From NCBI GenBank assembly GCA_022614965.1, contig JAKEHO010000017.1, positions 54,280 to 118,279 on the forward strand: DNA of 64,000 bases, given 5' to 3'. The notes under the pieces were generated by a model. That model was not told the origin of the DNA, searched no databases, and saw nothing but the letters and a program-made list of their open reading frames with translations. This document shows positions 28,617 to 52,384 of the stretch, in pieces. Numbering within the stretch: position 1 is the stretch's first letter; each line of letters begins with the position of its first letter. The position numbers and the translations under genes are program-made. The stretch is from Gammaproteobacteria bacterium (GTDB lineage Bacteria; Pseudomonadota; Gammaproteobacteria; JAKEHO01).

Positions 28617-29351
28617 TCATTGCCGTCGTTTCTGTGCTAAAACGACGAGTGTGCGACCAAATAAGGCCGTGTTTGAGTTCTGGATCGCCACATGCTCGGA
28701 TCTCCCGTGCTTCATACGTGCGCTCAGCCAGATTAACGGTGCCAGAAATGACCACAATAGGGATGTTCTCTGAAATCTGTCTGTTCGAACTTCGCTGATG
28801 TCCAGTCCGCTTTGCGCAAGACGCCAACGGTACGCGTCCAGCGTGGAAGCAGTGATGTGCTGTGATACCGGATCCAAAATATCCGGATCCAGTGTTGGGA
28901 ATGAGTAGAAATACCCGGTGAACAAAAATGCAATGCGGGATTTCAATGAGAGGATATTGGGCGTACTGAATGCAAAGGTGCCTCCGGGCCTCAAAACCCG
29001 CGATACTTCATTGAATAGAGCGCGATGATTTTCGAGATGTTCTATAAGCTCGATTGCCAGGACGAGATCGAGTGAGGCATCAGCATATGGCAGACGTCCA
29101 GTGGCGTCAACGCGTTGACATTGCACCCCAGAGACATCAAAGTTATCAGGAAACAGATCGCAGGCCTGCACCGAATAGCCGGCCTCGAGCAGCCTTCGGC
29201 AGAGTCCTCCGCGCCCTGCGCCGACATCTAGGACCTGAATATCACGTGAGGGGGGAATTTCCGATTCCACAATGCGCATGACCGCTTCATGGACGCCTCT
29301 AACAGCCATGGCATCAAATGGTTGAATGTCGGCTGTGGGCTCAGTCTTCAT
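28617..29351 (-). CDS. class I SAM-dependent methyltransferase (last gene of the glycan operon)
   Basis: Motif I (VLDVGAGRGG), motif post-I (acidic D after beta2) and a Methyltransf_11/25-like core. Start placed at MKTEP with a GAGGAGGGG upstream. The track ORF starts 16 codons earlier at an ATG with no SD. Confidence 0.7.
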   Translation of the reverse strand: MKTEPTADIQPFDAMAVRGVHEAVMRIVESEIPPSRDIQVLDVGAGRGGLCRRLLEAGYSVQACDLFPDNFDVSGVQCQRVDATGRLPYADASLDLVLAIELIEHLENHRALFNEVSRVLRPGGTFAFSTPNILSLKSRIAFLFTGYFYSFPTLDPDILDPVSQHITASTLDAYRWRLAQSGLDISEVRTDRFQRTSLLWSFLAPLIWLSARMKHGRSEHVAIQNSNTALFGRTLVVLAQKRRQ

Positions 29352-29447
29352 TTCAGTCTCGCCGCCCCTCCTCTGTAGGCAAGAACCCGTTCCGCTCATG
29401 CATTACACAGTTTTCGATAGGCGGCAAAGGAGTCCGGCATTTCTCAA

Positions 29448-30545
29448 CTAGTTAGCGAGTGCATCTTTGATTACAGCGACTATCTCTTCGATAACCTCAT
29501 CCTTTAGCTCCGGATACATTGGTAATGACAGGCATTGTTGTACGACTTGTTCGGTTCTGCTTAGAGTTAAAGCCTTGCAGGCACCTTTGAACGCATTCTG
29601 CTTGTGTAATGAAACGGGATAGTAGATGGCACTGGCGATACCGGCGTCTTTTAAGTGATTCATGACTTTGTCGCGCTCCGGGGTGAGGATGGTGTACTGG
29701 TGATACACGTGGTATCCCCGATTATCTTCATAAGGGGTGGTTAGTTTGACACCGGATAGTAGTCGGTTATAGGTTTTGGCGACGCGTCGCCGGTCCTTGT
29801 TATAAGCGTCAACCTGTTTTAGTTTAGTACGCAATACTACCGCTTGAATCTCATCCAAGCGGCTATTGAGTCCAATCAGCTCATGATGATACAGTTTATT
29901 ACAACCATGATTTCTTAGCATGCGCAGCCGCTTGGCAAGTTCACCTGAGGCCGTGCTCACCATTCCGCCATCGCCGTAGCAGCCAAGGTTCTTACTCGGG
30001 AAAAAGCTGAAACAACCCAGTATCCCGAAGCTTCCGGTCTGTCGATTATTGACATGTGCGCCAAAGGATTGGGCACAGTCTTCAATTAATTCAAGTCCTT
30101 CCTCATGGCATATTGATACGATTGCGCTCATGTCTGCCGGCTGGCCAAACAGGTGGACGGGCAGTACCGCCTTTGTTTTCTTTGTTATTGCCTGTTGAAT
30201 TTGGTCAGGATCGATATTAAAGGTGTGTGGATCGATATCAACAAACACAGGTATTGCGCCGACGTAGCGAATCGCCTCCGCGGTAGCGATAAAGCTGAAT
30301 GCTGTCGTGATCACTTCATCGCCAGGACCAATTCCCGCAACTTTGAGTGCAAGGTGCAATGCGTCAGTGCCCGAGGCACAGGAAACCACCTGATCGACAC
30401 CCAGGTAATCAGCCACTTCCTGTTCGAAGGCCATGACATTGGGTCCGAGGATGAACTGACCGCTTTCCAGGACTGCCCGTATTCTCAGCTCAATCTCGGG
30501 CTTAAGCTCTTGATATTGTTGTTTGAGATCAAGCATCGGAATCAC
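29448..30545 (-). CDS. DegT/DnrJ/EryC1 PLP-dependent sugar-nucleotide 3-aminotransferase, WbpE/GnnB-like
   Basis: 365 aa. Collinear with WbpE as I recall it, including the GTG-encoded start: MIPMLDLKQQ against MIEFIDLKNQ, EVITTAFSFIATAE, SFFPSKNLGCYGDGG, NHG..YHH..GLNSRLDE. The PLP lysine is in the FFPSK region. Confidence 0.82.
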   Translation of the reverse strand: MIPMLDLKQQYQELKPEIELRIRAVLESGQFILGPNVMAFEQEVADYLGVDQVVSCASGTDALHLALKVAGIGPGDEVITTAFSFIATAEAIRYVGAIPVFVDIDPHTFNIDPDQIQQAITKKTKAVLPVHLFGQPADMSAIVSICHEEGLELIEDCAQSFGAHVNNRQTGSFGILGCFSFFPSKNLGCYGDGGMVSTASGELAKRLRMLRNHGCNKLYHHELIGLNSRLDEIQAVVLRTKLKQVDAYNKDRRRVAKTYNRLLSGVKLTTPYEDNRGYHVYHQYTILTPERDKVMNHLKDAGIASAIYYPVSLHKQNAFKGACKALTLSRTEQVVQQCLSLPMYPELKDEVIEEIVAVIKDALAN

Positions 30546-30603
30546 GTGTGCGGTATCCTGATAGGCAGTTGTGACCTTGTGTGCTCGGGCGATCAGCTTA
30601 GCG

Positions 30604-31557
30604 TCACGCGGGGGTTAAGGGCGATTTATTCAGCAGCTCAGTGATTTGAATCGCAGTCTGCAATGCACGCTTGCCATCTTCGCCTGAGACGACGGGCTGT
30701 GTGCCAGACCGGATTGCCTCGAGGAAAAGTGCGATTTCGGTTTTGAGTGCGTCGCCATCCTCGAACGTTGTTTGTTCGCTGTCGATGTTCGGGATCCCAG
30801 GAAACATCTCACCATTGCCCTTTTTATGAACGGTCACCACTCGATTCTGAAAATCGATAGAGACATAGGAGTCTCTTTGGAATAAACGCATCTTACGCTC
30901 AGTTTTCATACTGACACGACTTGCCGTGACGTTGGCAACGCAGCCGTTTTTAAAAACTAGACGCGCGTTAGCAATATCGACTGCATCTGACAAGATAGAT
31001 GCGCCGGTCGCATCGATCCGCACCAAATCGGATTTCACCAGATTAATGATGATATCAATATCATGGATCATTAGGTCAAGCACGACATTGACATCCGTAC
31101 CTCGTGGATTAAAGGACGCTAAACGATGCGTTTCAATAAACACTGGTTTATCGCGTACTTTGTCAAGATTAAGAATCGCTGCATTAAATCGCTCCAAGTG
31201 CCCTACTTGAAGGATTTTACGCCGAGTTCTTGCTAGTGATATGAGGTCATCGGCCTGAGGAATGGTTGTTGTAATAGGCTTCTCCACCAATACGTGACTA
31301 TCATGCTTGATAAACGCTTTGGCTATGTCGTAGTGCAAACTGGTGGGTACGACGATGCTTACAGCCTGGACCCGGCCGAGCAATTCGCGGTAGTCAGTTG
31401 ACGATTCAACATGATACTTTGAAGCGACTGCGTCAGCGACCCGGCGATTCGTGTCCACGACCGCGACCAGTTTGCTATCGGGCAGTTGAGCATACTTCTC
31501 AGCATGGAACTTGCCTAAGTAGCCGACGCCAATAACCGCTGTGGTGATTTTTGCCAT
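30604..31557 (-). CDS. Gfo/Idh/MocA NAD(P)-dependent sugar(-nucleotide) dehydrogenase, GnnA/WbpB-like by context
   Basis: 317 aa. N-terminal Rossmann (AVIGVGYLGKFHAEK), the EKP motif (VLVEKPITT) and a C-terminal GFO_IDH_MocA_C domain. Directly upstream of, and co-oriented with, the aminotransferase. Confidence 0.72.
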   Translation of the reverse strand: MAKITTAVIGVGYLGKFHAEKYAQLPDSKLVAVVDTNRRVADAVASKYHVESSTDYRELLGRVQAVSIVVPTSLHYDIAKAFIKHDSHVLVEKPITTTIPQADDLISLARTRRKILQVGHLERFNAAILNLDKVRDKPVFIETHRLASFNPRGTDVNVVLDLMIHDIDIIINLVKSDLVRIDATGASILSDAVDIANARLVFKNGCVANVTASRVSMKTERKMRLFQRDSYVSIDFQNRVVTVHKKGNGEMFPGIPNIDSEQTTFEDGDALKTEIALFLEAIRSGTQPVVSGEDGKRALQTAIQITELLNKSPLTPA

Positions 31558-31680
31558 GGTCGACTCGATGCTACTGTATGTTCGACGGTATGATTTTCAA
31601 TGAAGCCGATGAAAGGCCTGTTCGATGAATGAGCTAGAGGATTTGAAGCAAGAGTTCAACAATATATGGTTCCTTATTTT

Positions 31681-32787
31681 TTATCGCTTCCTTAGAAGGA
31701 ATTCAAAGTCGAATCCAAAATCGGCACCCAAGGTTATGAAACTGGGCCACGTGCCCATTCTCTCTTGAATATGCCGGAAATAAAAGTATGGAGGCCAGCT
31801 TCTAAGCCGAGATCGTTGGGCCGCCAATTCACGCCTGATTTTTTCGGCTAGCGCATCAGTCCTGGGGTCGTCTGGAACTGTGATGGGTCGCTGTGTCTTT
31901 GAGGACAAGTCGAGCTCGTTCCGCAGCTTACCTACTGGCACCGCCCGCATCTTCTTACGCTTCGCTGGAAGATATCCGAGGGCGCGCAGGCCGCTTTTGA
32001 TGTGGATGTTTCGGAACCTGACACATTCGAATCCACATTCGGAGAAAAGGCGCAACAAATGCCGCTTTGTAAAGAAGGAGAGGTGGACTTGGCCTAAGAA
32101 AGGCAATAAGTCCTTCGAAGAACGCTGTAGGTCGTTTGACAGGTTTCTGACTGGTCCAAGATCTGCAGTGCCGTTGGGGGTGATCAATCGCAGATAGCCA
32201 CCCGCACGTAACACGCGACGGGTTTCCAGTAGGTGGTCGCGCGGGCGACGCACGTGTTCGAGCAGATCCTTCTGAAGGATATAGTCGAATGCGTTGTCAG
32301 GAAACTTTGCGTCTTCGAGAGTGGTACATCGTACGTTCAGCCCAAATTGCTGATCAGCGAAATAGGCAGCAAACTCTGAAACATCAATCCCCATAACATC
32401 CCAAGGGCTGTATTGTGTCAGGGAGTGCAAAACAAAGCCGAGCGCGCAGCCAACCTCTAGCAGGCGACCTCTCGGTGCAATCTTCCTTAACTGCTTTGCT
32501 AGAAAGTAGGCTTCACGCTCGTATCGCTGCTGTTGACGGGCATAGTCGCTGAAGCCGATGGCGGAATCCGAGTCGAAATAGTCGATTGAATAAAGGGCCT
32601 TCAATTCCGCCGGGCTGAGGCGGGGTCTGATCTGCCGGAACCCACAATGATCGCACTCACAAATACGAGCTGTGAACACACCACCCAGATTGACGTCAAG
32701 AATTGATCTGGTCAAACTCGGGGCATTGCAGATATCACACGGCTCATCTCGTTCCACTGAGGATCGGGACGTCTTAGGTTCCATCAT
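31681..32787 (-). CDS. class I SAM-dependent methyltransferase with N-terminal C4 zinc ribbon and a long uncharacterised C-terminal extension
   Basis: CDIC...(17)...CECDHC zinc ribbon, then MTase motif I (LLEVGCALG) and post-I/II (DYILQKDLLEHV; RVLRAGGYL). About 130 aa of C-terminus has no recognisable domain. Confidence 0.65.
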   Translation of the reverse strand: MMEPKTSRSSVERDEPCDICNAPSLTRSILDVNLGGVFTARICECDHCGFRQIRPRLSPAELKALYSIDYFDSDSAIGFSDYARQQQRYEREAYFLAKQLRKIAPRGRLLEVGCALGFVLHSLTQYSPWDVMGIDVSEFAAYFADQQFGLNVRCTTLEDAKFPDNAFDYILQKDLLEHVRRPRDHLLETRRVLRAGGYLRLITPNGTADLGPVRNLSNDLQRSSKDLLPFLGQVHLSFFTKRHLLRLFSECGFECVRFRNIHIKSGLRALGYLPAKRKKMRAVPVGKLRNELDLSSKTQRPITVPDDPRTDALAEKIRRELAAQRSRLRSWPPYFYFRHIQERMGTWPSFITLGADFGFDFEFLLRKR

Positions 32788-32793
32788 TCTTCT

Positions 32794-33297
32794 TCATGCC
32801 ATACCTGACGTTGATAAAGAGCCGCTCAGGATGCTACCAGGTAACGAGGCGGTCGTGTCCAATGCACGCGGATCCCCGCCAACGATTGAGAAGGTCCCAG
32901 ATCCCTGGCTGGATCGGTTAGGGCCGTTCGCAGGCTTGTACCGAGCCTTATATTGCCCTAATCTCGCTCGCGCCTGTCCAATAGGGACTATTAAACAGGG
33001 ATCTGCATTCCACCCGTTGGCATTCCAGGCTTTATTTACAGTGATTCCGGCCTTTCGGGCAAGCATGACTTGCCGATGATAGGGCAACAAATCGGTAAAG
33101 TGGAATAAGCATTTAGACGGACAGCCTGGTAGGGCAAAGCACAAATTGGGATCCCTTCGCCGACATCCTATAGGTAGCGCAGCGTTGAGGCGTGTTACTC
33201 GTGCGGTAAGATAATGCAGCCTAGTTGAAATCGAGGCTCGCGGATGGTCGGCGAGAAACGTAACCTGGCGTTCCGCCTCAATGGAGCTTGAGATCAC
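32794..33297 (-). CDS. hypothetical 167-aa ORF (GTG start) at the head of the minus-strand operon; coding status doubtful
   Basis: Its stop lies 6 nt before the methyltransferase ATG, which suggests coupling. The translation is low-complexity and R/A/S/G-rich with no recognisable domain. It could instead be a 5' leader or intergenic region. Confidence 0.25.
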   Translation of the reverse strand: MISSSIEAERQVTFLADHPRASISTRLHYLTARVTRLNAALPIGCRRRDPNLCFALPGCPSKCLFHFTDLLPYHRQVMLARKAGITVNKAWNANGWNADPCLIVPIGQARARLGQYKARYKPANGPNRSSQGSGTFSIVGGDPRALDTTASLPGSILSGSLSTSGMA

Positions 33298-33338
33298 AGG
33301 GATCGATAAAGTCCCATTAGTTAGCTCACAGATAGTCT

Positions 33339-34586
33339 ATGGTAGACACATCGAGGTTACTTTACTGGCCAGTCGCGTTAGGGGTGTTTCTTGCGCCAAT
33401 TGTGATGCTCCAGATCCCCCATGGGAGCGGTGCCTCCTATCTGTTACTGGCCTCACTCGGTGTGTTGACGCCTTTTGTTTCCCGCTATCGACCCTTCAGT
33501 CAGGATGAAAAACGCCTCTTTACCGTGGTGGGCGCGTTTTGCGCTGTGGCGCTCGTGTCCTATCTTTTGAGCGACATGAATTATCTAGGGTTCAGGAAAC
33601 TGGGGCGCTATGTCCGCCTGCTCGCCGTCATACCTGTCGCGTACATTTTCGTGCGTGCACGACTCACCCAGGGCTGGCTGTGGTATGGCGTCGCCGCAGG
33701 AGCCCTACTCGCTGGCGTTGTCGCCATGATAGGGGCCTGGGATGCCTCTCTTCAGGGTCGGGACCATTACCGCGCGGGTGGTAGTACCGGTCCGATTTTG
33801 TATGGTGATCTGGCGCTGGCTATGGGGTTCATCGCGCTTGCCGGGATGGGGTACTTTCACCAGCAGGGTCGTTGGCAGGTCCTTATGCCCCTGGTGGGGG
33901 TTGCCATGGGACTACTCGCCAGCCTGCTATCAGGGACCCGCGGTGGCTGGATTGCATTGCCCGCATTGGCCTTGCTTTGCCTGTGGTTCTATTGGAAGCA
34001 TCTGCAACGCTGGCAGTGCTCTACCTTGCTAATGCTATTGTTGGTTATTCCGCTAGCCGCATGGATGATCCCACAAACGGGTGTCAAGACGCGGGTCGAG
34101 GAGGTGCGAACAGAGATCGCCGCCTATCTTGATGGCACAAACCGTGACACATCGATTGGCCACCGCTTCGAGCTGTGGCGGGCGGCGTGGCAAATGTTCG
34201 AGAATCATCCCTTGTTTGGAGCGGGCGTTGGCGCTGATCAGGAGGCCATTCAGGCACAGATCAGGGCCGGGGAACGACACGAGGGTATCGCGCACTATCA
34301 AAGCCCTCATAGCGAATACCTCTCTGTACTTGCCAGTCGAGGCCTGGTCGGGTTCGTGGTGCTGATCCTTTTGTTCCTGGTACCCGCTTGGACCTTCTAT
34401 CGAGCGGCGCGCACAGGTTCTGCGGATGTTGCCCGACTCGGGCTAGCGGGTTTGGTCGTTGTGGTCGCATTCATGCACTTCGGCCTGACCGATGCGATCC
34501 TTGATCGGGTTCCTCCCATCCATTTCTACGGGCTATTCCTTGCTTTACTGACCTACCTGATCTCGTCTCTTGAATATGATGCATGA
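33339..34586 (+). CDS. O-antigen ligase (WaaL) / O-antigen polymerase family membrane protein (Wzy_C domain)
   Basis: 415 aa, about 10-12 TM helices. Periplasmic loop with GTRGGW...R and the H-x-E-Y-L...G..G motif (PHSEYLSVLASRGLVG). Confidence 0.65.
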   Translation: MVDTSRLLYWPVALGVFLAPIVMLQIPHGSGASYLLLASLGVLTPFVSRYRPFSQDEKRLFTVVGAFCAVALVSYLLSDMNYLGFRKLGRYVRLLAVIPVAYIFVRARLTQGWLWYGVAAGALLAGVVAMIGAWDASLQGRDHYRAGGSTGPILYGDLALAMGFIALAGMGYFHQQGRWQVLMPLVGVAMGLLASLLSGTRGGWIALPALALLCLWFYWKHLQRWQCSTLLMLLLVIPLAAWMIPQTGVKTRVEEVRTEIAAYLDGTNRDTSIGHRFELWRAAWQMFENHPLFGAGVGADQEAIQAQIRAGERHEGIAHYQSPHSEYLSVLASRGLVGFVVLILLFLVPAWTFYRAARTGSADVARLGLAGLVVVVAFMHFGLTDAILDRVPPIHFYGLFLALLTYLISSLEYDA

Positions 34587-34658
34587 TCCATGAGTAACAT
34601 GTGTCGGTTTCGAAGTCGGGGACACGAAGTGGGACTCCGTTTCCGGAGGTGACAGGTG

Positions 34659-35426
34659 ATGGAGAAAGAAAGTGGTCATACGCTAGGGCGGATCTCTGTT
34701 GTCATCATAACGAAAGATGCCGAGTTACACTTAGCAAACGTATTAGAAAGCACCGCTTCGTTCGGTGAGGTCATCATCTATGACAATGGCTCCACCGATT
34801 CGACCATTGATATTGCACGAGGCTTCCCTAACGTAGAAATAGCGACTGGGAAGTTCCTTGGATACGGTCCGACTAAAAATCACGCCGTCTCTTTGGCAAA
34901 CAATGACTGGGTGCTAACGATTGACAGCGATGAGGCGGTCTCGGAACAATTATTATATAGCCTGTCAAATCTAGATCTCGGTGATCCGAATAAAGCCTAT
35001 AGGATCAGACTCGATAATTATTTTATGGGGAAGAAGATTAAGTACTGCGGATGGGGATCGAACTGGCCAATCAGATTTTATAATCGAACGGTGCACTCCT
35101 TCACAGATGCTATGGTGCATGAGCGCGTTGTCGAGGTTAAGCACTCGCGCGAATGTAAGCTTGATGGCGCCCTGATTCACTATGCCGTCACCGATATTGG
35201 ACAGTTTCTCGTCAAGATCAACCGTTACTCAGAGATCCGAAAGGAAACATGGGATAGAGCCTACCCCGTGTTCGTCATTGTATTGCGTAGTTTGTGGGCA
35301 CTTTTTAGGACCTATGTTCTCAGACTTGGGTTCTTGGACGGATGGAGGGGCCTCGTAATTGCAGTCTCAGAGGCCAATGGCGTTTTTTACAAGTACATGA
35401 AGGTTTACGCAAAGCACAAGGCATGA
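34659..35426 (+). CDS. family-2 glycosyltransferase (LPS core type, WaaE/KdtX-like)
   Basis: GT-A fold (SVVIITKDAELHL; IIYDNGSTDST; DSDE acidic motif). ATG 8 nt after GGAGGTGA. Lower GC than the flanks. Confidence 0.72.
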   Translation: MEKESGHTLGRISVVIITKDAELHLANVLESTASFGEVIIYDNGSTDSTIDIARGFPNVEIATGKFLGYGPTKNHAVSLANNDWVLTIDSDEAVSEQLLYSLSNLDLGDPNKAYRIRLDNYFMGKKIKYCGWGSNWPIRFYNRTVHSFTDAMVHERVVEVKHSRECKLDGALIHYAVTDIGQFLVKINRYSEIRKETWDRAYPVFVIVLRSLWALFRTYVLRLGFLDGWRGLVIAVSEANGVFYKYMKVYAKHKA

Positions 35427-36490
35427 GGATTTGTCATATAAATCTTGCCAGAGGATTTCGCGGGGGCGAGCGTCAGACGCTATATCTGATGGAGGGTCTT
35501 CGAAAGCTGGGATGCGTCTGTAAGCTCTTTGCCAGACATAAGGGAGGACTTGCAGAGGCAGCACGCCGTGAAGATTTACCGGTCTACGGACTATCAAAGC
35601 CTTATTTCATTTCCGCATTCAAATTACGGGGCTATGACGTGATCCACGCACATGAGGCGAAGGCACACCAATTAGCAGCCATCACCCGGCGAGTTCACAA
35701 AAGGCCATTCATCGTGACGCGGCGCGTGGCGCGGGTACCTAAACGGAACCGCTTCACGGTCGCAAGGTACACGGCGGCGGCACATACCGTGGCTGTCTCT
35801 CACACCATTGCCGATATCTTGGTTGACTGGGGTCTGAAGCGCGAATGCCTATCGGTCATTTATGACGCAGTCAGGTTGGAAGATTGCTCAGATTTGGCGC
35901 GTGTGACTGAGCTAAGAAGGCGGTTTGAGGGTTACCAGGTGGTTGGCTCTGTGGGGGCACTGACAATCAAAGACAAGGATCCGGTGACCTTTCTCGAAGC
36001 TGCTCGCCATGTTCAAGATCAAAGAAACAACGTGGCGTTCGTCTTGATAGGTGGAGGTAAAGATGAGGGTGCCGTCCGAGCAAAAGCGAGAGAGCTTGGT
36101 CTGAAAAACGTCTTCTTCGAAGGTCATCAGGCGGATCCGTACTCGTATTACAGTGTAATGGACCTATTGGTACTGACATCAAAATCGGAGGGCCTAGGCT
36201 CAGCGATTCTCGATGCGTTTGCCTATCGGGTGCCTGTGGTAGCGACCGCCACCGGTGGAATTGGCGAATTGATTCAGGACGGCCACACGGGTTATCTCGC
36301 CCCCGTAGGCGATGCTAGGGCGGTCGCCACGAAGATATTGGAGGCGCTTGGCGAGCGTGCCAGGCGCAATGATTATGTTGACAATGCGTTGTCGCTGCTT
36401 AAGTCGCGTCACACTATTGATATGATGGCTAGCCATTATGCGAAGCTGTATCAAGAATTAGTCGAGGGAGACTACGCCGAACCCTGCTAG
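35423..36490 (+). CDS. family-4 glycosyltransferase (GT-B, RfaG/WaaG-like)
   Basis: EX7E motif region (SKSEGLGSAILDAFAYRVPVVATATGG). The ATG overlaps the GT2 stop (ATGA). The track ORF is extended 27 codons upstream. Confidence 0.82.
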   Translation: MRICHINLARGFRGGERQTLYLMEGLRKLGCVCKLFARHKGGLAEAARREDLPVYGLSKPYFISAFKLRGYDVIHAHEAKAHQLAAITRRVHKRPFIVTRRVARVPKRNRFTVARYTAAAHTVAVSHTIADILVDWGLKRECLSVIYDAVRLEDCSDLARVTELRRRFEGYQVVGSVGALTIKDKDPVTFLEAARHVQDQRNNVAFVLIGGGKDEGAVRAKARELGLKNVFFEGHQADPYSYYSVMDLLVLTSKSEGLGSAILDAFAYRVPVVATATGGIGELIQDGHTGYLAPVGDARAVATKILEALGERARRNDYVDNALSLLKSRHTIDMMASHYAKLYQELVEGDYAEPC

Positions 36491-36628
36491 CTCGGCGGAT
36501 GTCCGATGGCGTTGCGATACGGCCATAGGATAGGCCGAATGCAAGGCGACGATATGCCAGAACCGAAAACGTGCACGGACCCTTAGCCGAATGGTGAAAT
36601 CTGTGCGTGCTGTTATCACGCTTTGTTG

Positions 36629-36655
36629 TTGCAAGCTCTTGAGTTGCCTTACAAT
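36629..36655 (+). promoter_or_regulatory. sigma70-like promoter candidate for the small orphan gene
   Basis: TTGCAA, a 15-nt spacer, then TACAAT, about 30 nt upstream of the ATG at 36685. The spacer is shorter than optimal. Confidence 0.3.
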
Positions 36656-36684
36656 GTTGCCTCATTTGCCCGGGGATCATGTAA

Positions 36685-37089
36685 ATGAGCCAAATACATG
36701 TGCCGATCTCTATTGGTGAGCTCATCGACAAAATCACCGTCCTGGAGATCAAGATGGAGCGAATCGGCGACGCTAGCAAGCGCAAAAATGTACGAAAGGA
36801 ATTAGAGTTGCTTAATGAAACTTTGAACAGCTCTCAGGATGTTCGATACGATATCAGCAAGGAAAGGGCAGAGTTAAAGTCAATCAATGAAGCCCTATGG
36901 GATATTGAAGATCAAATTAGACTCAAAGAGGCCGAAGGGCAGTTCGACGAAGCATTCGTTGAATTAGCGCGTGCTGTCTATGTCAACAATGATAAGCGGG
37001 CGGCCATCAAACGTCAGATCAATATCCTTTTGCGCTCTGACATCATTGAGGAGAAATCCTATGCGGATTATACCCGTAACAGCCTGTAA
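36685..37089 (+). CDS. small (134 aa) predicted coiled-coil protein of unknown function; conserved-hypothetical (DUF-type) candidate
   Basis: Clean ATG ORF with markedly low GC (about 40-47% in sampled 60-mers). Charged heptad-like sequence (ELELLNETL...AELKSINEALWDIEDQIRLKEAEGQ). Sits between core glycosyltransferases and kdkA. Confidence 0.5.
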   Translation: MSQIHVPISIGELIDKITVLEIKMERIGDASKRKNVRKELELLNETLNSSQDVRYDISKERAELKSINEALWDIEDQIRLKEAEGQFDEAFVELARAVYVNNDKRAAIKRQINILLRSDIIEEKSYADYTRNSL

Positions 37090-37278
37090 TTGCCGAGCCG
37101 AACTGATGAAGTCGGTGTTGTCAACGATATCGTCTCAAAGCGGATTTCCTCATACTGCAAGCTCGTCTTGTTGTTCAGGGGCTATGTCTGCAAATGGCAA
37201 GGTATAGCCCTCTGCCAGTGGCTCGCCACCTACGCAAAAACTTTTTCGCAGGGATGCTGGGGCTACTCGGGTAAGCCA

Positions 37279-37989
37279 ATGTACCGGTGTGAGCAACCGC
37301 TGGATCACGGCTACATTCTCTACGACAAAGACGTTATCGCAAGTGCCGCGGATGTGAGTTTTGATCCCAAGGCATTGGCGAACTCCGGTGCGTTGGTTGG
37401 GGAGGTTCGAGGCCGAGGGGTGAACTATTTTATCAGGATGGCAGGTCACGACTGGGTGCTGCGGCACTACCGGCGCGGCGGGGCTATCGCGCGCATCATG
37501 GGTGACGCCTATCTCTGGACCGGTCGGCATCGCACGAGGCCGTGGCGGGAATGGCGCATGCTGGAGGGGCTTTGGATAGCAGGCTTGCCCGTACCCCGGC
37601 CTGTCGCCGCGCGGGTGTTGAGGTACGGTCTGGTGTATAGGGCCGATATTATTGTTGAACGGCTGGTCGGGGCACTTGCATTGAGTCAGTGGCTGAGGCA
37701 AAGAAGGCTTGATAAGGGGGCATGGAAGGCGATTGGTCGGTGCATACGTCGTTTTCATGATGCTGGCGTGTACCACCCAGATCTCAACGCACACAATATA
37801 ATGCTAGCGGGAGAGCAGGGAATATACGTTATTGACTTTGATCGGAGTGAACTGCGCCCTCCGTCTGAACATTGGTGCCCTAAAAATCTGGCACGTTTGC
37901 GTCGATCCTTAACGAAAGTCCGATCATTGACGGATACCTATTACTTTTCCGATCAGGACTGGCAGGCGCTTTGTGAAGGCTATGGTTAG
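37279..37989 (+). CDS. kdkA: 3-deoxy-D-manno-octulosonic acid (Kdo) kinase
   Basis: 237 aa from MYRCEQ. Collinear with Haemophilus KdkA as I recall it: GEVRGRGVNYF...LRHYRRGG and the catalytic loop YHPDLNAHNIML...DFD. The track ORF extends 63 codons upstream from a TTG. Confidence 0.78.
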   Translation: MYRCEQPLDHGYILYDKDVIASAADVSFDPKALANSGALVGEVRGRGVNYFIRMAGHDWVLRHYRRGGAIARIMGDAYLWTGRHRTRPWREWRMLEGLWIAGLPVPRPVAARVLRYGLVYRADIIVERLVGALALSQWLRQRRLDKGAWKAIGRCIRRFHDAGVYHPDLNAHNIMLAGEQGIYVIDFDRSELRPPSEHWCPKNLARLRRSLTKVRSLTDTYYFSDQDWQALCEGYG

Positions 37990-38144: not shown

Positions 38145-38966
38145 ATGCCGCCTAAGCTCGGAATCATCGCGGGTGGCGGCGAGCTGCCGGCCTCGCTCAT
38201 CTCCATCTGCCGTGCCACCGGGCGCGAGTTTTTTGTCCTTGCCGTTGACGGCTATACCGACCCTAAGCTGGTTGAGGATCTGCCCCACGCCTGGACGCGC
38301 TTGGGGGCGTTTGAGACGAGCATTCAGTTGCTCCGGGGGGCGGGTGTCGAAGAACTCGTCTTGGCAGGCCACGCACGCCGTCCATCCTTTAGCGGGATGA
38401 TGCCTGATGCGCGGCTTCGCCGATTACTCCTTCATTTAGGGTTTGCTGCCTCCGGCGATGACGGGCTGCTTTCCGGGGTGATCAAGGAGTTTGAGGAGGA
38501 GGGATTTCGCGTGGTGGGCTTACAGAGCATTATCGGAGACGTGTTGGCTGTTGAGGGTGTGTATACGAAGTGCGAACCGGACGAGCAGGCAAGGCTCGAT
38601 ATCGCACGTGGCGTTAAAGTAGCGAGAGCGCTGGGAGCGGAGGATGTCGGTCAGAGTGTGGTGGTACAGCACGGCATGGTCCTCGGTGTGGAGGCGATCG
38701 AGGGCACGGACGCATTGCTTGCGCGCTGTGGTACGTTAAAGCGGGACGGCCCCGGGGGGGTTCTTGTGAAAGTGAAAAAGCCAGTGCAGGAGCGACGCGT
38801 CGATCTACCGACGATTGGTCTCAGCACCGTTCATGGAGCGGCAGGTGCAGGCCTGCGCGGCATTGCCATCGAAGCTGGCGGGTCTCTCGTCGTCGACCGG
38901 CGTGCCGTGACCCGCGCCGCCGATGCCGCTGGCCTCTTTATCATGGGGATCACCCTCGAGGCGTGA
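38145..38966 (+). CDS. lpxI: UDP-2,3-diacylglucosamine hydrolase LpxI (DUF1009)
   Basis: 273 aa. N-terminus LGIIAGGGELP, typical of the DUF1009/LpxI family. Immediately upstream of lpxB and overlapping it by 4 nt. No LpxH in the window. Confidence 0.7.
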   Translation: MPPKLGIIAGGGELPASLISICRATGREFFVLAVDGYTDPKLVEDLPHAWTRLGAFETSIQLLRGAGVEELVLAGHARRPSFSGMMPDARLRRLLLHLGFAASGDDGLLSGVIKEFEEEGFRVVGLQSIIGDVLAVEGVYTKCEPDEQARLDIARGVKVARALGAEDVGQSVVVQHGMVLGVEAIEGTDALLARCGTLKRDGPGGVLVKVKKPVQERRVDLPTIGLSTVHGAAGAGLRGIAIEAGGSLVVDRRAVTRAADAAGLFIMGITLEA

Positions 38967-40174
38967 GCGCGCCAACCGACTCCGAGCCGGGTCAACTGGT
39001 TTTCCTCATCGCGGGTGAGCCCTCGGGCGACCAGCTGGGGGCCCGCTTGATGGCCGGACTTAAGGAAGAGGGTGGCGGGCGAGTGCGTTTCGCCGGCGTT
39101 GGCGGGGAGCAGATGGCCGAGCAGGGGCTTAGGAGTCTCTTCCCAATGGCCGAGCTCGCCGTGACCGGACTAGTTGAGGTCGTGTTTCATCTTCCGCAGA
39201 TTTTCCGCCGCATTAGCGACACCGTACAAGCCGTATTACAGTGTCGTCCTGACGTGGTCGTGACCATTGACGCCCCGGATTTCTCTCTGCAGGTCGCGCG
39301 GCGCCTGAAGGGCGCCGGGATCCCTTTGGTCCATTGCGTGGCACCGACAGTGTGGGCATGGAAGCCCCAGCGGGCAAAGAAGATGGCCGGTTTTCTGGAT
39401 CGTGTGTTGGCCCTCTTACCGTTCGAGCCGCCCTATTTTGAGGTACACGGCCTCGCCTGCGATTTTGTGGGTCACCCCGCTGTGGAAGGCGTTGCCGGCG
39501 GTGATGGACCGGCATTTCGCAAACGCTATGCCATCCCGATGACCGCCCCCCTGCTTTGCGCATTGCCCGGGAGCCGCCGAGGCGAGACGAGGCGGCTGCT
39601 GCCGGTGTTCCGGGACGCCCTTGCCCTGTTGGCAAAACGTATTCCAAACATTTACGTGGCCATCCCGACGGTTTCTGATGTTGCCGCACTGGTTGAGGAG
39701 GCGGCGTCGCATTTGCCGATGCCGGTCATTCTCGTTCGTAGCCGAGAAGAGAAATATGATGCCTATGCGGCAGCCGATGTGGCGCTGGCGAAATCAGGGA
39801 CGTCAATCATTGAACTTGCGGCAGCAGGTGTACCCACCGTCGTGACCCATCGCGTCAATCCGCTGACGGCATTCATGGTGCGGCGGATGATTCGGCTCGA
39901 ATACGTGAGCTTTGTGAATGTTCTGCTTGGGCGTCCAATGCAACCAGAGCTGTTACAGGAAAATTGTAGGCCCGAAAAGCTCGCGGCTACCGTCGAGCGT
40001 ATGCTGACCGATGCTAAATGGCGCGCGGAACAGATCGAAGGTGAACGGCATGTAGCCGAGGTACTGGGTATGGGCGGCGAACCGCCGAGCCGCAGAGCGG
40101 CACGAGTCGTACTCGATGTGATCCGAGCAAAATTGGATGGTTTAGGTGGCTCAATCGTGAAGCGAGAAGGGTGA
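38963..40174 (+). CDS. lpxB: lipid-A-disaccharide synthase
   Basis: 403 aa GT19 (LVFLIAGEPSGDQLGARLM; VHCVAPTVWAWKPQRAKKM). GTG start. Confidence 0.9.
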   Translation: MSAPTDSEPGQLVFLIAGEPSGDQLGARLMAGLKEEGGGRVRFAGVGGEQMAEQGLRSLFPMAELAVTGLVEVVFHLPQIFRRISDTVQAVLQCRPDVVVTIDAPDFSLQVARRLKGAGIPLVHCVAPTVWAWKPQRAKKMAGFLDRVLALLPFEPPYFEVHGLACDFVGHPAVEGVAGGDGPAFRKRYAIPMTAPLLCALPGSRRGETRRLLPVFRDALALLAKRIPNIYVAIPTVSDVAALVEEAASHLPMPVILVRSREEKYDAYAAADVALAKSGTSIIELAAAGVPTVVTHRVNPLTAFMVRRMIRLEYVSFVNVLLGRPMQPELLQENCRPEKLAATVERMLTDAKWRAEQIEGERHVAEVLGMGGEPPSRRAARVVLDVIRAKLDGLGGSIVKREG

Positions 40175-40266: not shown

Positions 40267-41175
40267 ATGAAAGCGTTGGGCTACTTTTTTTGCTATGTTG
40301 CCGTGACTATTGTCATCGGCGCGCTGCTATCCTATGCCCTTTTTCTTGTGATACATGATAGTCCGCTTGCGCCCTCGGTGTTATCGCAGGTTCCTTTCCA
40401 CAAGGTGGTGCCCCGCGCATTCATGCTTGTGGCTCTGCTTGGGCTTTGGCCACTCCTGAAATCACTCGGATTGACCACGCGAAGGGACCTGGGGTTTGAC
40501 CTCCCATCACGTGCACTCCTTGTAGCGATCGGTCACGGAATGATTGTCGGGATCATGATACTCGCATCTCTTGCCATCGTATTGGTGATCCTCGGGGTGA
40601 GGGAACTCGATGCAACCGGAGACCTTTTTCCGTTCAACCTGGTTGGTGTGGTCATCAAGGCCTTGGCTGCGGGAATTTTGATTGCACTTATCGAAGAGAC
40701 CGTATTTCGTGGCGCGTTTTACAGTGTTGCAAGCAAGGCGTTCAAAGTGACGGGCACAATAGTCTTTACAGCGCTTCTCTATGCCGCGGTTCATTTCATC
40801 CGCTCCGGAACCGAAATCCCTTTTGGCGACGTCAGCTGGCAAAGCGGGTTTACCGTGCTGGCATATTCCTTGCAAACTTTTTGGAGTCTTGCATTTCTGG
40901 ATTCTTTCTTGGCGCTCTTTTCGGCTGGGATATTTCTCGGGTTGGTACGTTTTTCGACAGGCCATATTGGGCAGTGCATCGGCATCCATGCTGGCTGGGT
41001 ACTATCGATTAAAGTGACCAAGTATCTTACGGCGAAGAATGATGCTTCGGATCTGGATTTCCTGGTTGGCTATTACGACGGGATTATTGGTTACCTGGCG
41101 GTTGCCTGGCTCATTATCGCGTGCCTTTTGTACTACCTTTTCTCTAGGCGACGGGAGGCGGTGGCCTCGCTATGA
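40267..41175 (+). CDS. CPBP-family (CAAX protease / Abi) intramembrane metalloprotease
   Basis: 302 aa polytopic protein with the CPBP motifs EExxFRG (LIEETVFRGAFY) and FxxxH (YAAVHFIRSG). Confidence 0.78.
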   Translation: MKALGYFFCYVAVTIVIGALLSYALFLVIHDSPLAPSVLSQVPFHKVVPRAFMLVALLGLWPLLKSLGLTTRRDLGFDLPSRALLVAIGHGMIVGIMILASLAIVLVILGVRELDATGDLFPFNLVGVVIKALAAGILIALIEETVFRGAFYSVASKAFKVTGTIVFTALLYAAVHFIRSGTEIPFGDVSWQSGFTVLAYSLQTFWSLAFLDSFLALFSAGIFLGLVRFSTGHIGQCIGIHAGWVLSIKVTKYLTAKNDASDLDFLVGYYDGIIGYLAVAWLIIACLLYYLFSRRREAVASL

Positions 41176-41277: not shown

Positions 41278-42090
41278 CTACAAGTCCGCGGGTGCATCGT
41301 TGTCGTTTGCTGCATTCGACATACCGCAAATTCCACGTTTGGATGTTTCAACGAATTCGCAAAATTCAATGGCGGGACCGTCCTGGAATGCCTCGCGGAT
41401 GTGTTTTAAGGCCTGGGATACATTTAAGCCGGATCGGTACATGAGCGTGAATGCTTGTTTGACCTGCTGACGTGCTGCGGGTGATATACCAGCCCGGCGC
41501 ATCCCGACGGTATTGATCCCGAGGATCTTATTCGGCTGAAAGGGGTGGGTAGTGCAGAAGGGTGGGACATCTTTGGAAATCCCACTGCTCCCCCCCAGCA
41601 TGGCGAGTCGCCCGACACGGCAGAACTGGTGTACCAGGCAAAGGGCACTTATAAACGCGGCATCTCCAACCTCACTGTAACCACCAAGCAGCGCGCCGTT
41701 GACCAGGATGACGCGCTTTCCCAAGGTCGCGTTATGGGCAACATGGCTAAAATTCATCAGATAACATTCGTCTCCAATGATGGTGGACGTACCGGCTTTG
41801 GTGCCGCGATGGACGGTGACGCCTTCCCGGATCACGCATTTGGAGCCCAACTTGACATAGCTCTCCTCGTTCTGATGTGCGAGATCCTGTGGTAGTCCGC
41901 CTAACACCGCGCCCGCATGCACCTGGCAGCCAGGACCGAGGGTGGTGTAGCGGTAGATAGTCGCTTGAGGCCCGATAGAGCATCCGTCGCCGACGACCGC
42001 GCCCATCTCGATGTACGTAAGGGGACCGACCGTAACGTTCTTGCCCAAGATCACGCCCTCTTCGACGACGGCCGAGGGGTGGATGCTCAT
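41278..42090 (-). CDS. lpxA: UDP-N-acetylglucosamine (or UDP-GlcNAc3N) acyltransferase
   Basis: Left-handed beta-helix hexapeptide repeats plus the LpxA-specific C-terminal helical domain (GINTVGMRRAGISPAARQQVKQAFTLMYRSG against E. coli [31 protein letters not shown]). Start at MSIHPSAVVEEG. Confidence 0.85.
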   Translation of the reverse strand: MSIHPSAVVEEGVILGKNVTVGPLTYIEMGAVVGDGCSIGPQATIYRYTTLGPGCQVHAGAVLGGLPQDLAHQNEESYVKLGSKCVIREGVTVHRGTKAGTSTIIGDECYLMNFSHVAHNATLGKRVILVNGALLGGYSEVGDAAFISALCLVHQFCRVGRLAMLGGSSGISKDVPPFCTTHPFQPNKILGINTVGMRRAGISPAARQQVKQAFTLMYRSGLNVSQALKHIREAFQDGPAIEFCEFVETSKRGICGMSNAANDNDAPADL

Positions 42091-42215
42091 CGACGTGCCG
42101 TAACCCATTGCGGGCGTTCAATCAGATCCCGCCGGAGCGCTCGGAAAAGATGACGAGCGCCATCGCTTGCACCGTACACAATCAGCGGTGAGCAACGTGT
42201 TTCCCCAACACGGAG

Positions 42216-48466: not shown

Positions 48467-51400
48467 CTACTGGTTAACGCCATCGATGAACCGGGATGGG
48501 GCGCTGGCGGCTTCGTGGTTTTTGGCATTCACTCTCTCAACCGTTGGATTGTCCCAACTGCCCGTGATGATGTATTGATGACTGAGTACGTTGTCTAGCT
48601 GATCGGGCAGGGACTTGAACATCTGGCCGACCACCAGAATGGCGGCGCCGACACCGACGCCAACCGGTCCGAACAGGGCGCTGGCGACTGGCAAGCTGCT
48701 GGCGAACGCTGGCGTCACCGTCACGGTCTGGTTGTAGTCTTGGGCGATGAGCCCCGTGCGCCCCGTTACGCCCATGCGTGCGGAAGGGCCCTCCATGACA
48801 AAGTCGTTGGTGTAGGCATTGCCGTTTTCAAAATCGAATGTACCTTCGATGCGATCAAAGGGGAAACCTTTTTGATACATGTCATCAAAATCAAGGCTTA
48901 AGCGCCGTGCGAGTGTCTGAAAGCTCAGCAGGCCGAAGATGCGACCTACGCCTTGCTGGATGTCGAGAAAGCGCCCTTTGCCGACGTTCATGTGCAGGGT
49001 GCCATTCATAGTTGCCAGCGAAAAATCTCTTGGTGCCCCTTGCCAGCTGGCATCGATATCGAGCTGCGCCGCGCCGCCTTCGATGGAAGTCACGTTGTAA
49101 CCAAATCGATTGAGCAACTTACCAAGATCGTCTGCCTCAACTGTGATATCAACGTGTGATCGCTGCACTTCGTCGACGACGAGCCAGTCTCCCTGGCCTA
49201 AGATATTGAGTCCGGGTGAGATAAACGCGAGTTCGTCCAATCGCAGGCCATCGCTCACAGGGGTTGCCCGCAGGCGAGTCTCACCCAGTTCGACGGACCC
49301 GTACGTCAATGCCTTGCAATGCACCGTGAGGGCGGGGAGACGCCGTGGATCGGTGCGTGTTGTCGCGTCGGGGGGGGTGACAGTGGCAAGTGTCAATTTT
49401 TCAAACTCCGCATGCACGGGTGCCGCTAACCCCGCTGCAGGCACTGTAATCGAACCACTCGCCTCTGCCGCGACAATACTGGCGATCCACCCCCGCTCGT
49501 CATGGGCGATTTTGAGTTTAGCGCTGTTGAGCCACTGGTCGAGCACCTCGAGCCGCGCGATAGCGACATCGACGTTAACGGCCTCGGGTGGATAGGGCAT
49601 TGAGGCACCTCTATTGCGCTCGTTGGCTTGTAGGAGATCTAGCCAAGGACTCACAGCGAGTTCGGGGAGTTGACCATCGATGGCGAGCCCCGGCCTATCG
49701 GGTAAGCGTGGTGTGCCAGGACCAAGATGCAAGCCGATACGGTTCATCGCGGCTGCAACCGGCTCCGGGTGCAGCTCAAGTACACCGCTTAAGTTCGCAC
49801 CGTAACGGAATGTGAAGCGATTTTGTGTGGAGTCGCCAATTTGAGTCAGAATGGTGAGATCGGTCTCTTCATCCGTTGCTTTACCAAGGGGTGCAGGCAG
49901 GTGCACTGTCATGCCCTCGAGTTGGGACGTGAGCCTAACCTGTCCGGGCGTTTGTGCGTTACAGCAGTCCGTCGGTAACGTGATCTCCGCTTGCCATTTC
50001 GTGTCGCCGTCGATCCATCGCTCGTCGAGCAGCGCCAGCGTTGGGTCGAATCGCCTGAGTTGGTCAGCCAGGAACGCAGGATCGGCCGTTCCGCTCACCA
50101 GCAATTCGCTGCTGGCGTTTTCTTCGACATAATCTGTGCTGATGTCGAAGTGGACGGGCCGGTCGAATAGCTTACCTTCAAGTCCCTTCGCATCCAAGCG
50201 CGTTTCAGTAAACTCCAGCTGTCCCTCGATGTCCGTGAACGTTGCGCCCAGCCGATTGGAGTGCACGGCGTTGCCTGCCAGCTGCACCTGGCCTTGCACG
50301 GCGTAACTGCCCTCGTCCATCAATGGTGTCTCCATCGCGAGGTCTATCGTAATCGTGCCATCGAAGTCCATCGATGTGACCTGCCTTCCGATGGCCTGTG
50401 ATGCTAACGGACTTTCTAGTATGAATCTCCGCACATCGGCCGCCGCCGCCTTTATTGTGCTCTGGCCTTTGAACACCTTATCCGGTGCGCTGACATCTGC
50501 AATGCCCCCATGCGCGCTCACGATCTCAGAGTTGAGTACCATAGCGTGTGTCACATCGACTGTGAGGTTCCAACCTTCGATGGCGATAGCTGCTTCAATC
50601 GCGCTGAGCTGTGGCCAACCGGTGGCGTAATCCAGAACACCGTCACGGATCGTGGCCCGCACTTGAAATCGTCCCTGGCCCTGACTGAATGGAAACTCAT
50701 TAAGTGCGCCACGCCAAACACCTACTCCTTCCGTGATCCGCCCGGCCAAAACGGCGCCTTTGACCCAGTCTTTATCTGCGTCGGGGACAGTTTTCGGCAA
50801 GTATCGGGAAATGTGCTCCAGCCGCCCGTCTTCAATGGTCACGACAAGATCTGCCGTCGGTGCCGGGTTAGCACCAGACCAGGCGAGTCGTCCGCGCAGT
50901 TTCGCGCTCATATCGTTATTTCGCATCGCTAACGTGTCTGAGGTTAATGTCCAGCCGTCATCGTCGTGTGTCCAACTGATTGCCCCTTCAAGCCAATTGA
51001 GCCAGAACGGCATCTCAAACCACGTTGGAAATTGGATCTCAACAGGATCCCTATCCAAGAGCAGCACGCCAGTCCCTAAGGTACCGCTGATACTCCCACG
51101 TAATCCGCTGATACCCGGAACACCGGCGTCTGGTCCGGCGATCAGATCGTTGAAGCTCATCTTTAGAAAGAGTCGCTCATCGAACAGCCGATCCGGGCGG
51201 TAATCGAACTGGACGTTGTGAAGCTCACCTCGTGGTGCGGATTTTGTGAGGTAATGACGGATCGTTGCCGACAGACCGGAAGAATTTGCCAGCAGCGGCG
51301 CAATGTCACCCAGCTTGAGAAAGCGGATACTGCCCGTGAGATGGTAGCCACCTGCCCAGGGCATCGGCGTGGTCTGCAGATGGATCTCATCGTCTGGCCA

Positions 51401-52384
51401 GGGCCCCTCGGGTGTCGTCACCCAAAGTCGGTTGACATCAATGCGCCAACCTCGGCTTGCCGTCCGCAGGGCGGTGAGCTCCGCCTTCGCCTCGGTAAGC
51501 GACATCCCTGCGCCGTCAATGAGCAGGTCAAACGGCCCCGTCGCGAACTGCCCGTCGATCCTGGTGAGCGTGCCATCGCTCCACGTGGTCCAAACTTTGA
51601 GATCCATCTCACCATGTGCCATGTCGACCCCGATCCTTGCGATGTCGCGGAGCCACGGCCCTGGATGAATACCGTGCCCTTCAACATAGAGTTCCCCTGA
51701 CCATTCGGGGGTCAAGAGATCGCCATCAGCATCCAAGGCAAAGTCAAGCCGATTGCCCATGTAGCGAGGCAGTTGGGCGGATCCCTCCAGTTGCAGGCGC
51801 TTCCCTGCGCTGCGAAGTTGCAGCGAAACATTTGAAAAGGCGAGTGGTTCCTTCATGGTTTGTAAGTCGACCCAAGTCACACGTGCCTGCTCGATAGTGA
51901 GTTGTTGCTGTCGTTGCAGCCAGGCACCTAGGCCGCTGCTACCCGCAGTCCGCTTGCTTACATCGGCCTCATCGAATCCTTTAACCGTGATAGAACCATC
52001 TGGATTATGCATGAGTGACAACTGCAATCCAGAGATTGTCAAGGACCCAGGAACCAGCTCTTTTCTCAATAAGCTGCTGATGGGATCGATACTGATGTGG
52101 GCCCGTTGAAACCGTGCGATGTGTCCAGTGCCATTTTTTTCCAATAGGCTGATTTGTTGTAGATCGAGCTGCGGCCGCCAGCCTTGCCAATTAGCATTGA
52201 TAGACTCTATCTCCACCGGTTGCTCCATATAGCGGCTTACCCACTGTTGAATCTCCTCACGATACTCACTGATCCCAGGCAGCATGAGACGCACTACGGT
52301 GACAGCGATGGCGGCGAAGAGGGTAATGCCGGCGAAGGCATACCACGCCACACCAAATAAAAATTTGATTACCCGTTTGAACAT
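48467..52384 (-). CDS. yhdP: YhdP-family (AsmA-like) inner-membrane-anchored periplasm-spanning protein
   Basis: 1305 aa. Single N-terminal TM helix then a long beta-rich periplasmic region. Immediately downstream of rng, as in E. coli. Confidence 0.75.
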   Translation of the reverse strand: MFKRVIKFLFGVAWYAFAGITLFAAIAVTVVRLMLPGISEYREEIQQWVSRYMEQPVEIESINANWQGWRPQLDLQQISLLEKNGTGHIARFQRAHISIDPISSLLRKELVPGSLTISGLQLSLMHNPDGSITVKGFDEADVSKRTAGSSGLGAWLQRQQQLTIEQARVTWVDLQTMKEPLAFSNVSLQLRSAGKRLQLEGSAQLPRYMGNRLDFALDADGDLLTPEWSGELYVEGHGIHPGPWLRDIARIGVDMAHGEMDLKVWTTWSDGTLTRIDGQFATGPFDLLIDGAGMSLTEAKAELTALRTASRGWRIDVNRLWVTTPEGPWPDDEIHLQTTPMPWAGGYHLTGSIRFLKLGDIAPLLANSSGLSATIRHYLTKSAPRGELHNVQFDYRPDRLFDERLFLKMSFNDLIAGPDAGVPGISGLRGSISGTLGTGVLLLDRDPVEIQFPTWFEMPFWLNWLEGAISWTHDDDGWTLTSDTLAMRNNDMSAKLRGRLAWSGANPAPTADLVVTIEDGRLEHISRYLPKTVPDADKDWVKGAVLAGRITEGVGVWRGALNEFPFSQGQGRFQVRATIRDGVLDYATGWPQLSAIEAAIAIEGWNLTVDVTHAMVLNSEIVSAHGGIADVSAPDKVFKGQSTIKAAAADVRRFILESPLASQAIGRQVTSMDFDGTITIDLAMETPLMDEGSYAVQGQVQLAGNAVHSNRLGATFTDIEGQLEFTETRLDAKGLEGKLFDRPVHFDISTDYVEENASSELLVSGTADPAFLADQLRRFDPTLALLDERWIDGDTKWQAEITLPTDCCNAQTPGQVRLTSQLEGMTVHLPAPLGKATDEETDLTILTQIGDSTQNRFTFRYGANLSGVLELHPEPVAAAMNRIGLHLGPGTPRLPDRPGLAIDGQLPELAVSPWLDLLQANERNRGASMPYPPEAVNVDVAIARLEVLDQWLNSAKLKIAHDERGWIASIVAAEASGSITVPAAGLAAPVHAEFEKLTLATVTPPDATTRTDPRRLPALTVHCKALTYGSVELGETRLRATPVSDGLRLDELAFISPGLNILGQGDWLVVDEVQRSHVDITVEADDLGKLLNRFGYNVTSIEGGAAQLDIDASWQGAPRDFSLATMNGTLHMNVGKGRFLDIQQGVGRIFGLLSFQTLARRLSLDFDDMYQKGFPFDRIEGTFDFENGNAYTNDFVMEGPSARMGVTGRTGLIAQDYNQTVTVTPAFASSLPVASALFGPVGVGVGAAILVVGQMFKSLPDQLDNVLSHQYIITGSWDNPTVERVNAKNHEAASAPSRFIDGVNQ

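Follow-up and report, generated by a model that had tools for sequence, protein, structure and literature searches.

The question raised by this locus is whether two methyltransferase genes that flank a putative UDP-sugar 3-dehydrogenase/3-aminotransferase pair take part in the same pathway as that pair. The genes lie on the minus strand of a 64,000-nt stretch of contig JAKEHO010000017.1 from an uncultured gammaproteobacterium (the window; all coordinates are positions in this stretch, to which the analysis of the source genome was confined). An earlier note on the same DNA described a five-gene minus-strand operon consisting of ORF167, a zinc-ribbon methyltransferase (here MT1), a Gfo/Idh/MocA dehydrogenase, a DegT aminotransferase, and a class I methyltransferase (MT2), and it suggested that the set might specify a methylated amino sugar. 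The four enzyme genes are clear and occupy 28617-32787, where that note had placed them, but ORF167 is not gene-like, which leaves at most four genes, and a promoter-like site splits MT1 from the dehydrogenase gene. In our reading, which we hold to be quite probable, the two central genes are an ordinary gnnA-gnnB pair of lipid A biosynthesis, and MT1 and MT2 are lineage-specific neighbors that do not form one module with it. Identical copies of these proteins are present in two metagenome-assembled genome (MAG) assemblies labelled Gammaproteobacteria bacterium.

The GnnA and GnnB enzymes convert UDP-N-acetylglucosamine (UDP-GlcNAc) to its 3-amino derivative UDP-GlcNAc3N for lipid A (PMC8036547). 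The Acidithiobacillus ferrooxidans enzymes are those of Sweet et al. 2004 (as cited in PMC8036547 and PMC5644692), where GnnA oxidizes UDP-GlcNAc to UDP-3-oxo-GlcNAc, and PDB entry 7bvj is the structure of a GnnA UDP-GlcNAc 3-dehydrogenase (Manissorn et al. 2020, as cited in PMC11446377). The pair in the window belongs to the same two families in the same order, with the aminotransferase gene beginning 58 nt downstream of the dehydrogenase gene. The Rossmann and EKP motifs previously ascribed to the dehydrogenase are found in its translation as IGVGYLG and VEKP. Its best PDB match is 7bvj at E 2.6e-64, the two being 40% identical in an alignment of 301 residues that also pairs the EKP and DLMIHD (DxxxHD) motifs, and the next PDB matches are inositol dehydrogenases at about 6e-18 and weaker. 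WbpB, the corresponding dehydrogenase of Pseudomonas aeruginosa, does not occur in the top 60 PDB matches; in the PDB search the enzyme is nearer to GnnA than to other characterized Gfo/Idh/MocA enzymes, WbpB included. The best NCBIfam model is also a UDP-GlcNAc 3-dehydrogenase, the archaeal equivalog NF040723, and no model specific to bacterial GnnA was among the NCBIfam models matched.

For the aminotransferase the best PDB match is 7b0d, at 50% identity; its identity to WbpE is 44% (E 2.6e-95). The three sequence blocks quoted earlier as evidence of its kinship with WbpE-type enzymes, DEVITTAFSFIATAE, SFFPSKNLGCYGDGG, and NHGCNKLYHHELIGLNSRLDEIQA, are all found in the translation, and its SFFPSK motif, which carries the pyridoxal phosphate (PLP) lysine, aligns with SFFPSK of WbpE. 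The entry 7b0d is labelled 'Glutamine--scyllo-inositol transaminase'; a full-text search turned up no paper identifying it, and it does not help to tell GnnB from WbpE. In the UDP-ManNAc(3NAc)A pathway of P. aeruginosa, WbpB and WbpE perform the same C-3 chemistry on a UDP-2-acetamido sugar. That pathway differs from the present locus in its dehydrogenase, the one in the window not being WbpB-like, and in its further enzymes, as there is no WbpA-, WbpD-, or WbpI-like gene among the scanned window open reading frames (ORFs) of at least 150 amino acids. In agreement with the earlier remark that a WbpD-like N-acetyltransferase is absent from the operon, LpxA is the sole hexapeptide acyl/acetyltransferase in that set.

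The decisive evidence for the aminotransferase comes from gene order. In a synteny scan that took a single genome for each species, 80 loci had a dehydrogenase 52-66% identical to ours, in Methylococcales, Legionella, Coxiellaceae, Thioalkalivibrio, Geobacteraceae (Geobacter), and others. A GnnB homolog (56-70% identical) lies directly downstream of gnnA in 59 of them, and in most of these lpxB comes next and lpxA is often directly upstream, giving the order (lpxA)-gnnA-gnnB-lpxB. By synteny, then, the two genes in the window are orthologs of this pair, and because of the 7bvj match together with the gene order in relatives, a Gnn-type role in lipid A is well supported. A comparison against GnnA/GnnB and WbpB/WbpE had been proposed in the earlier note, which favored a Gnn-type over a Wbp-type pair; in that comparison the dehydrogenase is GnnA-type and the aminotransferase is settled by synteny, not by sequence, and the preference holds.

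Where the locus departs from that of A. ferrooxidans is in its arrangement, the pair lying outside the lpxA...lpxB interval with two methyltransferase genes on its flanks. As the earlier note had it, lpxI, lpxB, and lpxA are close by, with kdkA-lpxI-lpxB at about 5 kb and a solitary lpxA at about 10 kb. Location of a gnn pair away from the lpx cluster has precedents in Bradyrhizobium, Brucella, and Phyllobacterium (PMC5644692), and the pair would have become separated from lpxA and lpxB in the present lineage of uncultured gammaproteobacteria.

By analogy with established members of these families and by orthology, GnnA would use NAD+ to oxidize the 3-hydroxyl of UDP-GlcNAc to the 3-ketone, which GnnB would transaminate in a PLP-dependent reaction to UDP-GlcNAc3N. 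LpxA would then N-acylate position 3, as expected from established Gnn organisms, and the product would pass through LpxC, LpxD, LpxI, and LpxB to lipid A. Since UDP-GlcNAc3N would thereby enter the lipid A pathway, amide linkage is predicted for at least some of the primary acyl chains and perhaps for all of them, in a 2,3-diamino-sugar lipid A like that of Legionella, Acidithiobacillus, and many Methylococcales. This prediction is useful for annotation, though it is an expected one, and the flanking methyltransferases imply no new chemistry.

Whether MT1 and MT2 belong with the pair can be judged from the company that they and the pair keep elsewhere. No MT1 or MT2 homolog lies within 10 kb of gnnA in any of the 80 loci. 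The two families are themselves widespread, being 43-63% conserved over several phyla in unrelated contexts. MT1 homologs, at 45-53% identity over about 96% of the length, occur in MAGs labelled Planctomycetes, Acidobacteria, Eisenbacteria, and others, and three of their contexts read singly had unrelated neighbors and no sugar genes. A metagenome scan with an MT1 alignment gave about 63 loci, 56 of them with a full-length MT1 (L101-L156; identities 40-100%, median 52%), and gnnA, gnnB, MT2, lpx, and Wzy_C genes were absent from all of these roughly 63 loci. Neighbor clustering instead placed hemL immediately upstream and divergent in 37 of the 56 full-length loci and a small cytochrome c gene just downstream on the same strand in 29, with ispG, hemB, and hemC/D also nearby, a neighborhood that hints at a link of the MT1 family to tetrapyrrole or cytochrome metabolism. 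MT2 homologs (47-63% identity) are found in MAGs labelled Gammaproteobacteria, Phycisphaerales, and Verrucomicrobiota; in the seven contexts that were read, the neighbors are bPH_2/EamA, Usp/GDSL, aldo-keto reductase, or MarR/aminotransferase-4 genes, and none of the seven contains lipopolysaccharide (LPS) genes.

The methyltransferases themselves give a similar picture. In sequence searches of Pfam, NCBIfam, and the PDB, both proteins have generic class I matches alone, all under the NCBIfam cutoffs, and their structural models are Rossmann-fold methyltransferases, the MT2 model (predicted local distance difference test score, pLDDT, 88.9) matching generic class I methyltransferases alone. 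MT1 has an N-terminal CxxC...CxxC zinc ribbon (C17, C20, C45, and C48) that is invariant or nearly so over 41 homologs. In this zinc ribbon and in its class I S-adenosylmethionine (SAM) domain it resembles the sugar methyltransferases TcaB9, KijD1, and MtmC, but the identities are only 15-18%, the MT1-family profile matches TcaB9 at E 0.06, and the C-terminal regions differ. MT1 also lacks the Methyltransf_13 and Methyltransf_14 domains of those enzymes, even when its isolated N- and C-terminal parts were searched at E up to 10; no database family was matched by these parts. Enzymes of the TcaB9/KijD1/MtmC type are expected in deoxy/amino-sugar biosynthesis clusters, whereas MT1 homologs sit beside hemL, the cytochrome c gene, ispG, and hemB. 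The resemblance is that of a common zinc ribbon and SAM core. Recent duplication of one methyltransferase from the other was considered and rejected, as MT1 and MT2 can be aligned over the SAM core alone, at 21% identity.

The one methyltransferase that, to our knowledge, has been characterized as acting on lipid A of the 2,3-diamino-sugar (GlcN3N) type is LmtA of Leptospira interrogans, which methylates the lipid A 1-phosphate. LmtA belongs to the ICMT/Ste14p family of integral-membrane enzymes, whereas MT1 and MT2 match class I Pfam families alone and are not homologous to it. A literature search for methylated GlcN3N lipid A turned up nothing relevant.

Two close relatives bear on the linkage directly. 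In L094, whose MT1 is 77% identical to that of the window, the Wzy_C gene and MT1-gnnA-gnnB are arranged in the same order. In L012, from a sibling species with proteins 66-84% identical, the order is acnA-lpxA-CPBP-lpxB-lpxI-kdkA-DUF6165 followed by gnnA-gnnB-MT2-fumC. One deletion there, of about 3.6 kb, accounts for the loss of the Wzy_C gene, the gene for a family 2 glycosyltransferase (GT2), the first half of that for a family 4 glycosyltransferase (GT4), the intergenic region, and MT1 codons 1-123. What is left of MT1 (residues 124-368) has in-frame stops and is a pseudogene, and gnnA, gnnB, and MT2 are intact; their integrity despite the decay of MT1 indicates that the Gnn pair can do without MT1. 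At 6361-7589 of L012 the C-terminal half of GT4 is fused to MT1 codons 124-368. The deletion also removed the divergent promoter region that in the window precedes DUF6165-kdkA-lpxI-lpxB.

The spacers between the genes also bear on the linkage. All four genes are co-oriented, with 123 nt between MT1 and gnnA and 48-96 nt between gnnB and MT2, the true start of MT2 probably being M17 at 29351, which would give a protein of 244 residues where homologs have about 240-250. The MT1-gnnA spacer has a mean column identity of 88% over three relatives, including a TTGA[A/T]A hexamer, and a promoter-like pattern lies just upstream of gnnA (Table 1), which fits transcription of gnnA from its own promoter. 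Between gnnB and MT2 the spacer lacks such conservation, but no terminator-like site was found in it on the minus strand, and co-transcription of MT2 is therefore plausible. The likely transcription units would be gnnA-gnnB(-MT2) from their own promoter and MT1 from a promoter further upstream.

That upstream promoter may lie in the DNA called ORF167 (32794-33297), which the earlier note had counted as a gene of the operon. The translation has no Pfam or NCBIfam match, and the G+C content by codon position is flat (0.53/0.55/0.52), when all nearby real genes show a position-dependent pattern. A 158-nt block upstream of MT1 (32935-33092, minus strand) is 75% identical at the DNA level to positions 955-1112 of L094, yet the ORF167 translation is merely 40% identical to its L094 counterpart. 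Because there is no family match, codon-position G+C is flat, and the DNA is better conserved than the protein, we take ORF167 to be, most likely, non-coding DNA of a promoter or leader, and its place as an operon gene was not upheld. Compared with L094, the conserved block holds several perfectly conserved stretches, e.g., CAACGGGTGGA, GCAGATCCCTG, and GAGATTAGGGCAATA. A known RNA was tried as an explanation and set aside, as no Rfam family matches the region; Rfam gave nothing at gathering scores across the whole window, and in the region itself chance-level matches only at E up to 10.

Several observations weigh against our reading of an ordinary gnn pair with unrelated neighbors. The NF040723 score of the dehydrogenase, 212.6 bits, is under the cutoff of 450 of a model that was built for archaeal enzymes, and by sequence alone the aminotransferase, at 44% identity to WbpE, cannot be told apart as GnnB or WbpE. 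The placement of each methyltransferase beside gnnA and gnnB is shared by at least two species, and this kept order, with the co-orientation and short gaps, makes co-transcription and a local functional link possible. When the predicted fold of MT1 is compared, nucleotide-sugar C3-methyltransferases rank first, as a sugar-modifying role would predict. These points are the starting material for the alternatives. Were MT1, gnnA, gnnB, and MT2 a single module, one or both methyltransferases would methylate a Gnn intermediate or product, lipid A, or the core, to give an N-, O-, or C-methylated 3-amino sugar, and the co-oriented genes, their short gaps, and the order kept for MT1 in L094 and for MT2 in L012 are what such a module would show. 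We think this unlikely, since neither methyltransferase is found in the 80 other gnnA loci, both families are conserved across phyla in non-sugar settings, MT1 has decayed in L012 next to an intact gnnA and gnnB, MT1 and gnnA have a conserved promoter-like site between them, MT1 lacks the Methyltransf_13 and Methyltransf_14 domains and matches TcaB9 only at the profile level given above, and MT2 matches generic methyltransferases alone. The absence from gnnA loci, the unrelated contexts, and the MT1 pseudogene likewise speak against the proposal of the earlier note that the two methyltransferases, ORF167, and the gnn pair make up a methylated-sugar module. A version in which MT1, with its TcaB9-like zinc-ribbon fold, and/or MT2 was recruited to gnnA-gnnB in this lineage and methylates the UDP-sugar in its 3-keto or 3-amino form, or else the completed lipid A or core, seems to us quite unlikely; if true, class I methyltransferases would be making a methylated GlcN3N lipid A, and neither the modification nor the enzyme type has been described for lipid A. 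The position of MT1 and MT2 most likely reflects a lineage-specific gene order, and the enzymes would act on other substrates.

The remaining alternatives start from the divergent genes on the other side of the intergenic region. The pair adjoins a ligase-like gene and two glycosyltransferase genes rather than lying between lpxA and lpxB, and this, with the similarity of the aminotransferase to WbpE, would suit a WbpB/WbpE-like pair making a 3-amino uronic or other 3-amino sugar for an O-antigen or core assembled by the Wzy_C, GT2, and GT4 proteins, and not for lipid A. Such a role is very improbable in view of the GnnA-type dehydrogenase, with WbpB outside its best 60 PDB matches, the lack of WbpA, WbpD, and WbpI homologs among the scanned ORFs, and the nearest relatives of both genes, which sit between lpxA and lpxB; moreover L012 has lost the ligase-like gene and GT2 and has a shortened GT4, and its gnnA and gnnB are still intact. 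MT1 could also be grouped with the core/O-antigen genes Wzy_C, GT2, and GT4, perhaps as a sugar O-methyltransferase or a chain terminator, as it has a divergent intergenic region in common with the Wzy_C gene in the window and in L094, and as MT1 codons 1-123 were lost in L012 jointly with Wzy_C, GT2, and half of GT4. That joint loss was a single deletion of about 3.6 kb and for this reason says little on function, and MT1 homologs elsewhere lie beside hemL and the cytochrome c gene without glycosyltransferase or ligase neighbors, so that we give this assignment hardly any weight. Setting these alternatives beside the ordinary gnnA-gnnB pair with lineage-specific neighbors, we retain the latter. 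The MT1 family is in its own right a well-conserved, uncharacterized group of zinc-ribbon methyltransferases of about 350 residues whose deepest conserved neighbors are hemL, the small cytochrome c gene, and hemB, and it may repay further work.

Table 1. Features of the gnnA-gnnB locus and its surroundings, in window positions.
Feature	Position	Strand	Basis
MT2, class I SAM methyltransferase	28617-29399	-	Methyltransf_11/23 (Pfam), E ~1e-16
gnnB, putative UDP-3-keto-GlcNAc 3-aminotransferase (DegT)	29448-30545	-	PF01041 DegT_DnrJ_EryC1, E 7e-126
gnnA, putative UDP-GlcNAc 3-dehydrogenase (Gfo/Idh/MocA)	30604-31557	-	PF01408 GFO_IDH_MocA, E 2.5e-30; PF22725
Promoter-like site TTGAAA-16-TACAGT	31573-31600	-	Consensus scan, just upstream of gnnA; pattern match only
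MT1, zinc ribbon and class I SAM methyltransferase, 368 aa	31681-32787	-	Methyltransf_23/11 (Pfam), E ~2e-16
Divergent non-coding region, Wzy_C gene to MT1	32788-33338	.	Contains ORF167 and conserved block 32935-33092
Wzy_C ligase-like	33339-34586	+	NCBIfam/Pfam; diverges from MT1
GT2	34656-35426	+	NCBIfam/Pfam
GT4	35342-36490	+	NCBIfam/Pfam
DUF6165	36685-37089	+	E 2e-14
kdkA (3-deoxy-D-manno-octulosonic acid, Kdo, kinase)	37090-37989	+	NCBIfam KdkA, 276.6 bits, over cutoff
lpxI	38145-38966	+	NCBIfam LpxI, 243 bits
lpxB	38963-40174	+	TIGR00215, 253 bits, over cutoff
CPBP protease	40267-41175	+	
lpxA	41278-42108	-	TIGR01852, 294 bits (cutoff 231); alone beside acnA

Among the surrounding genes, lpxA stands beside acnA without an adjoining lpxD or fabZ, both in the window and in L012 (583-1350). 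The PDB scores of LpxA against the enzymes of Bacteroides fragilis (181 bits), Leptospira (173), and E. coli (167) are close and do not separate sugar selectivity. The locus uses lpxI instead of lpxH, and the Kdo kinase gene kdkA is present, though the ORF as listed (299 residues, TTG start) is probably too long, as its NCBIfam match does not start before residue 72 and the gene is called with 236 residues on the source contigs. G+C content is lower in several genes of 28617-37089 than in the adjacent lipid A genes, with 48.5% in gnnA and gnnB, 46.7% in GT2, and 44.7% in DUF6165 against 61-62% in lpxI and lpxB, and this stretch may be a variable or acquired LPS segment. The remainder of the window consists of housekeeping genes, with some further envelope-lipid genes at 7759-9018, 48467-52384, and 58056-59664 that encode, respectively, a LapB-like tetratricopeptide repeat/rubredoxin protein, a 1305-residue YhdP, and MlaA with MlaC. 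At 59795-62053 on the minus strand a GT2/GT21 glycosyltransferase gene adjoins one for a radical-SAM protein with DUF3463, a pair that looks like hpnI/hpnH and would suggest that the organism makes extended hopanoids.

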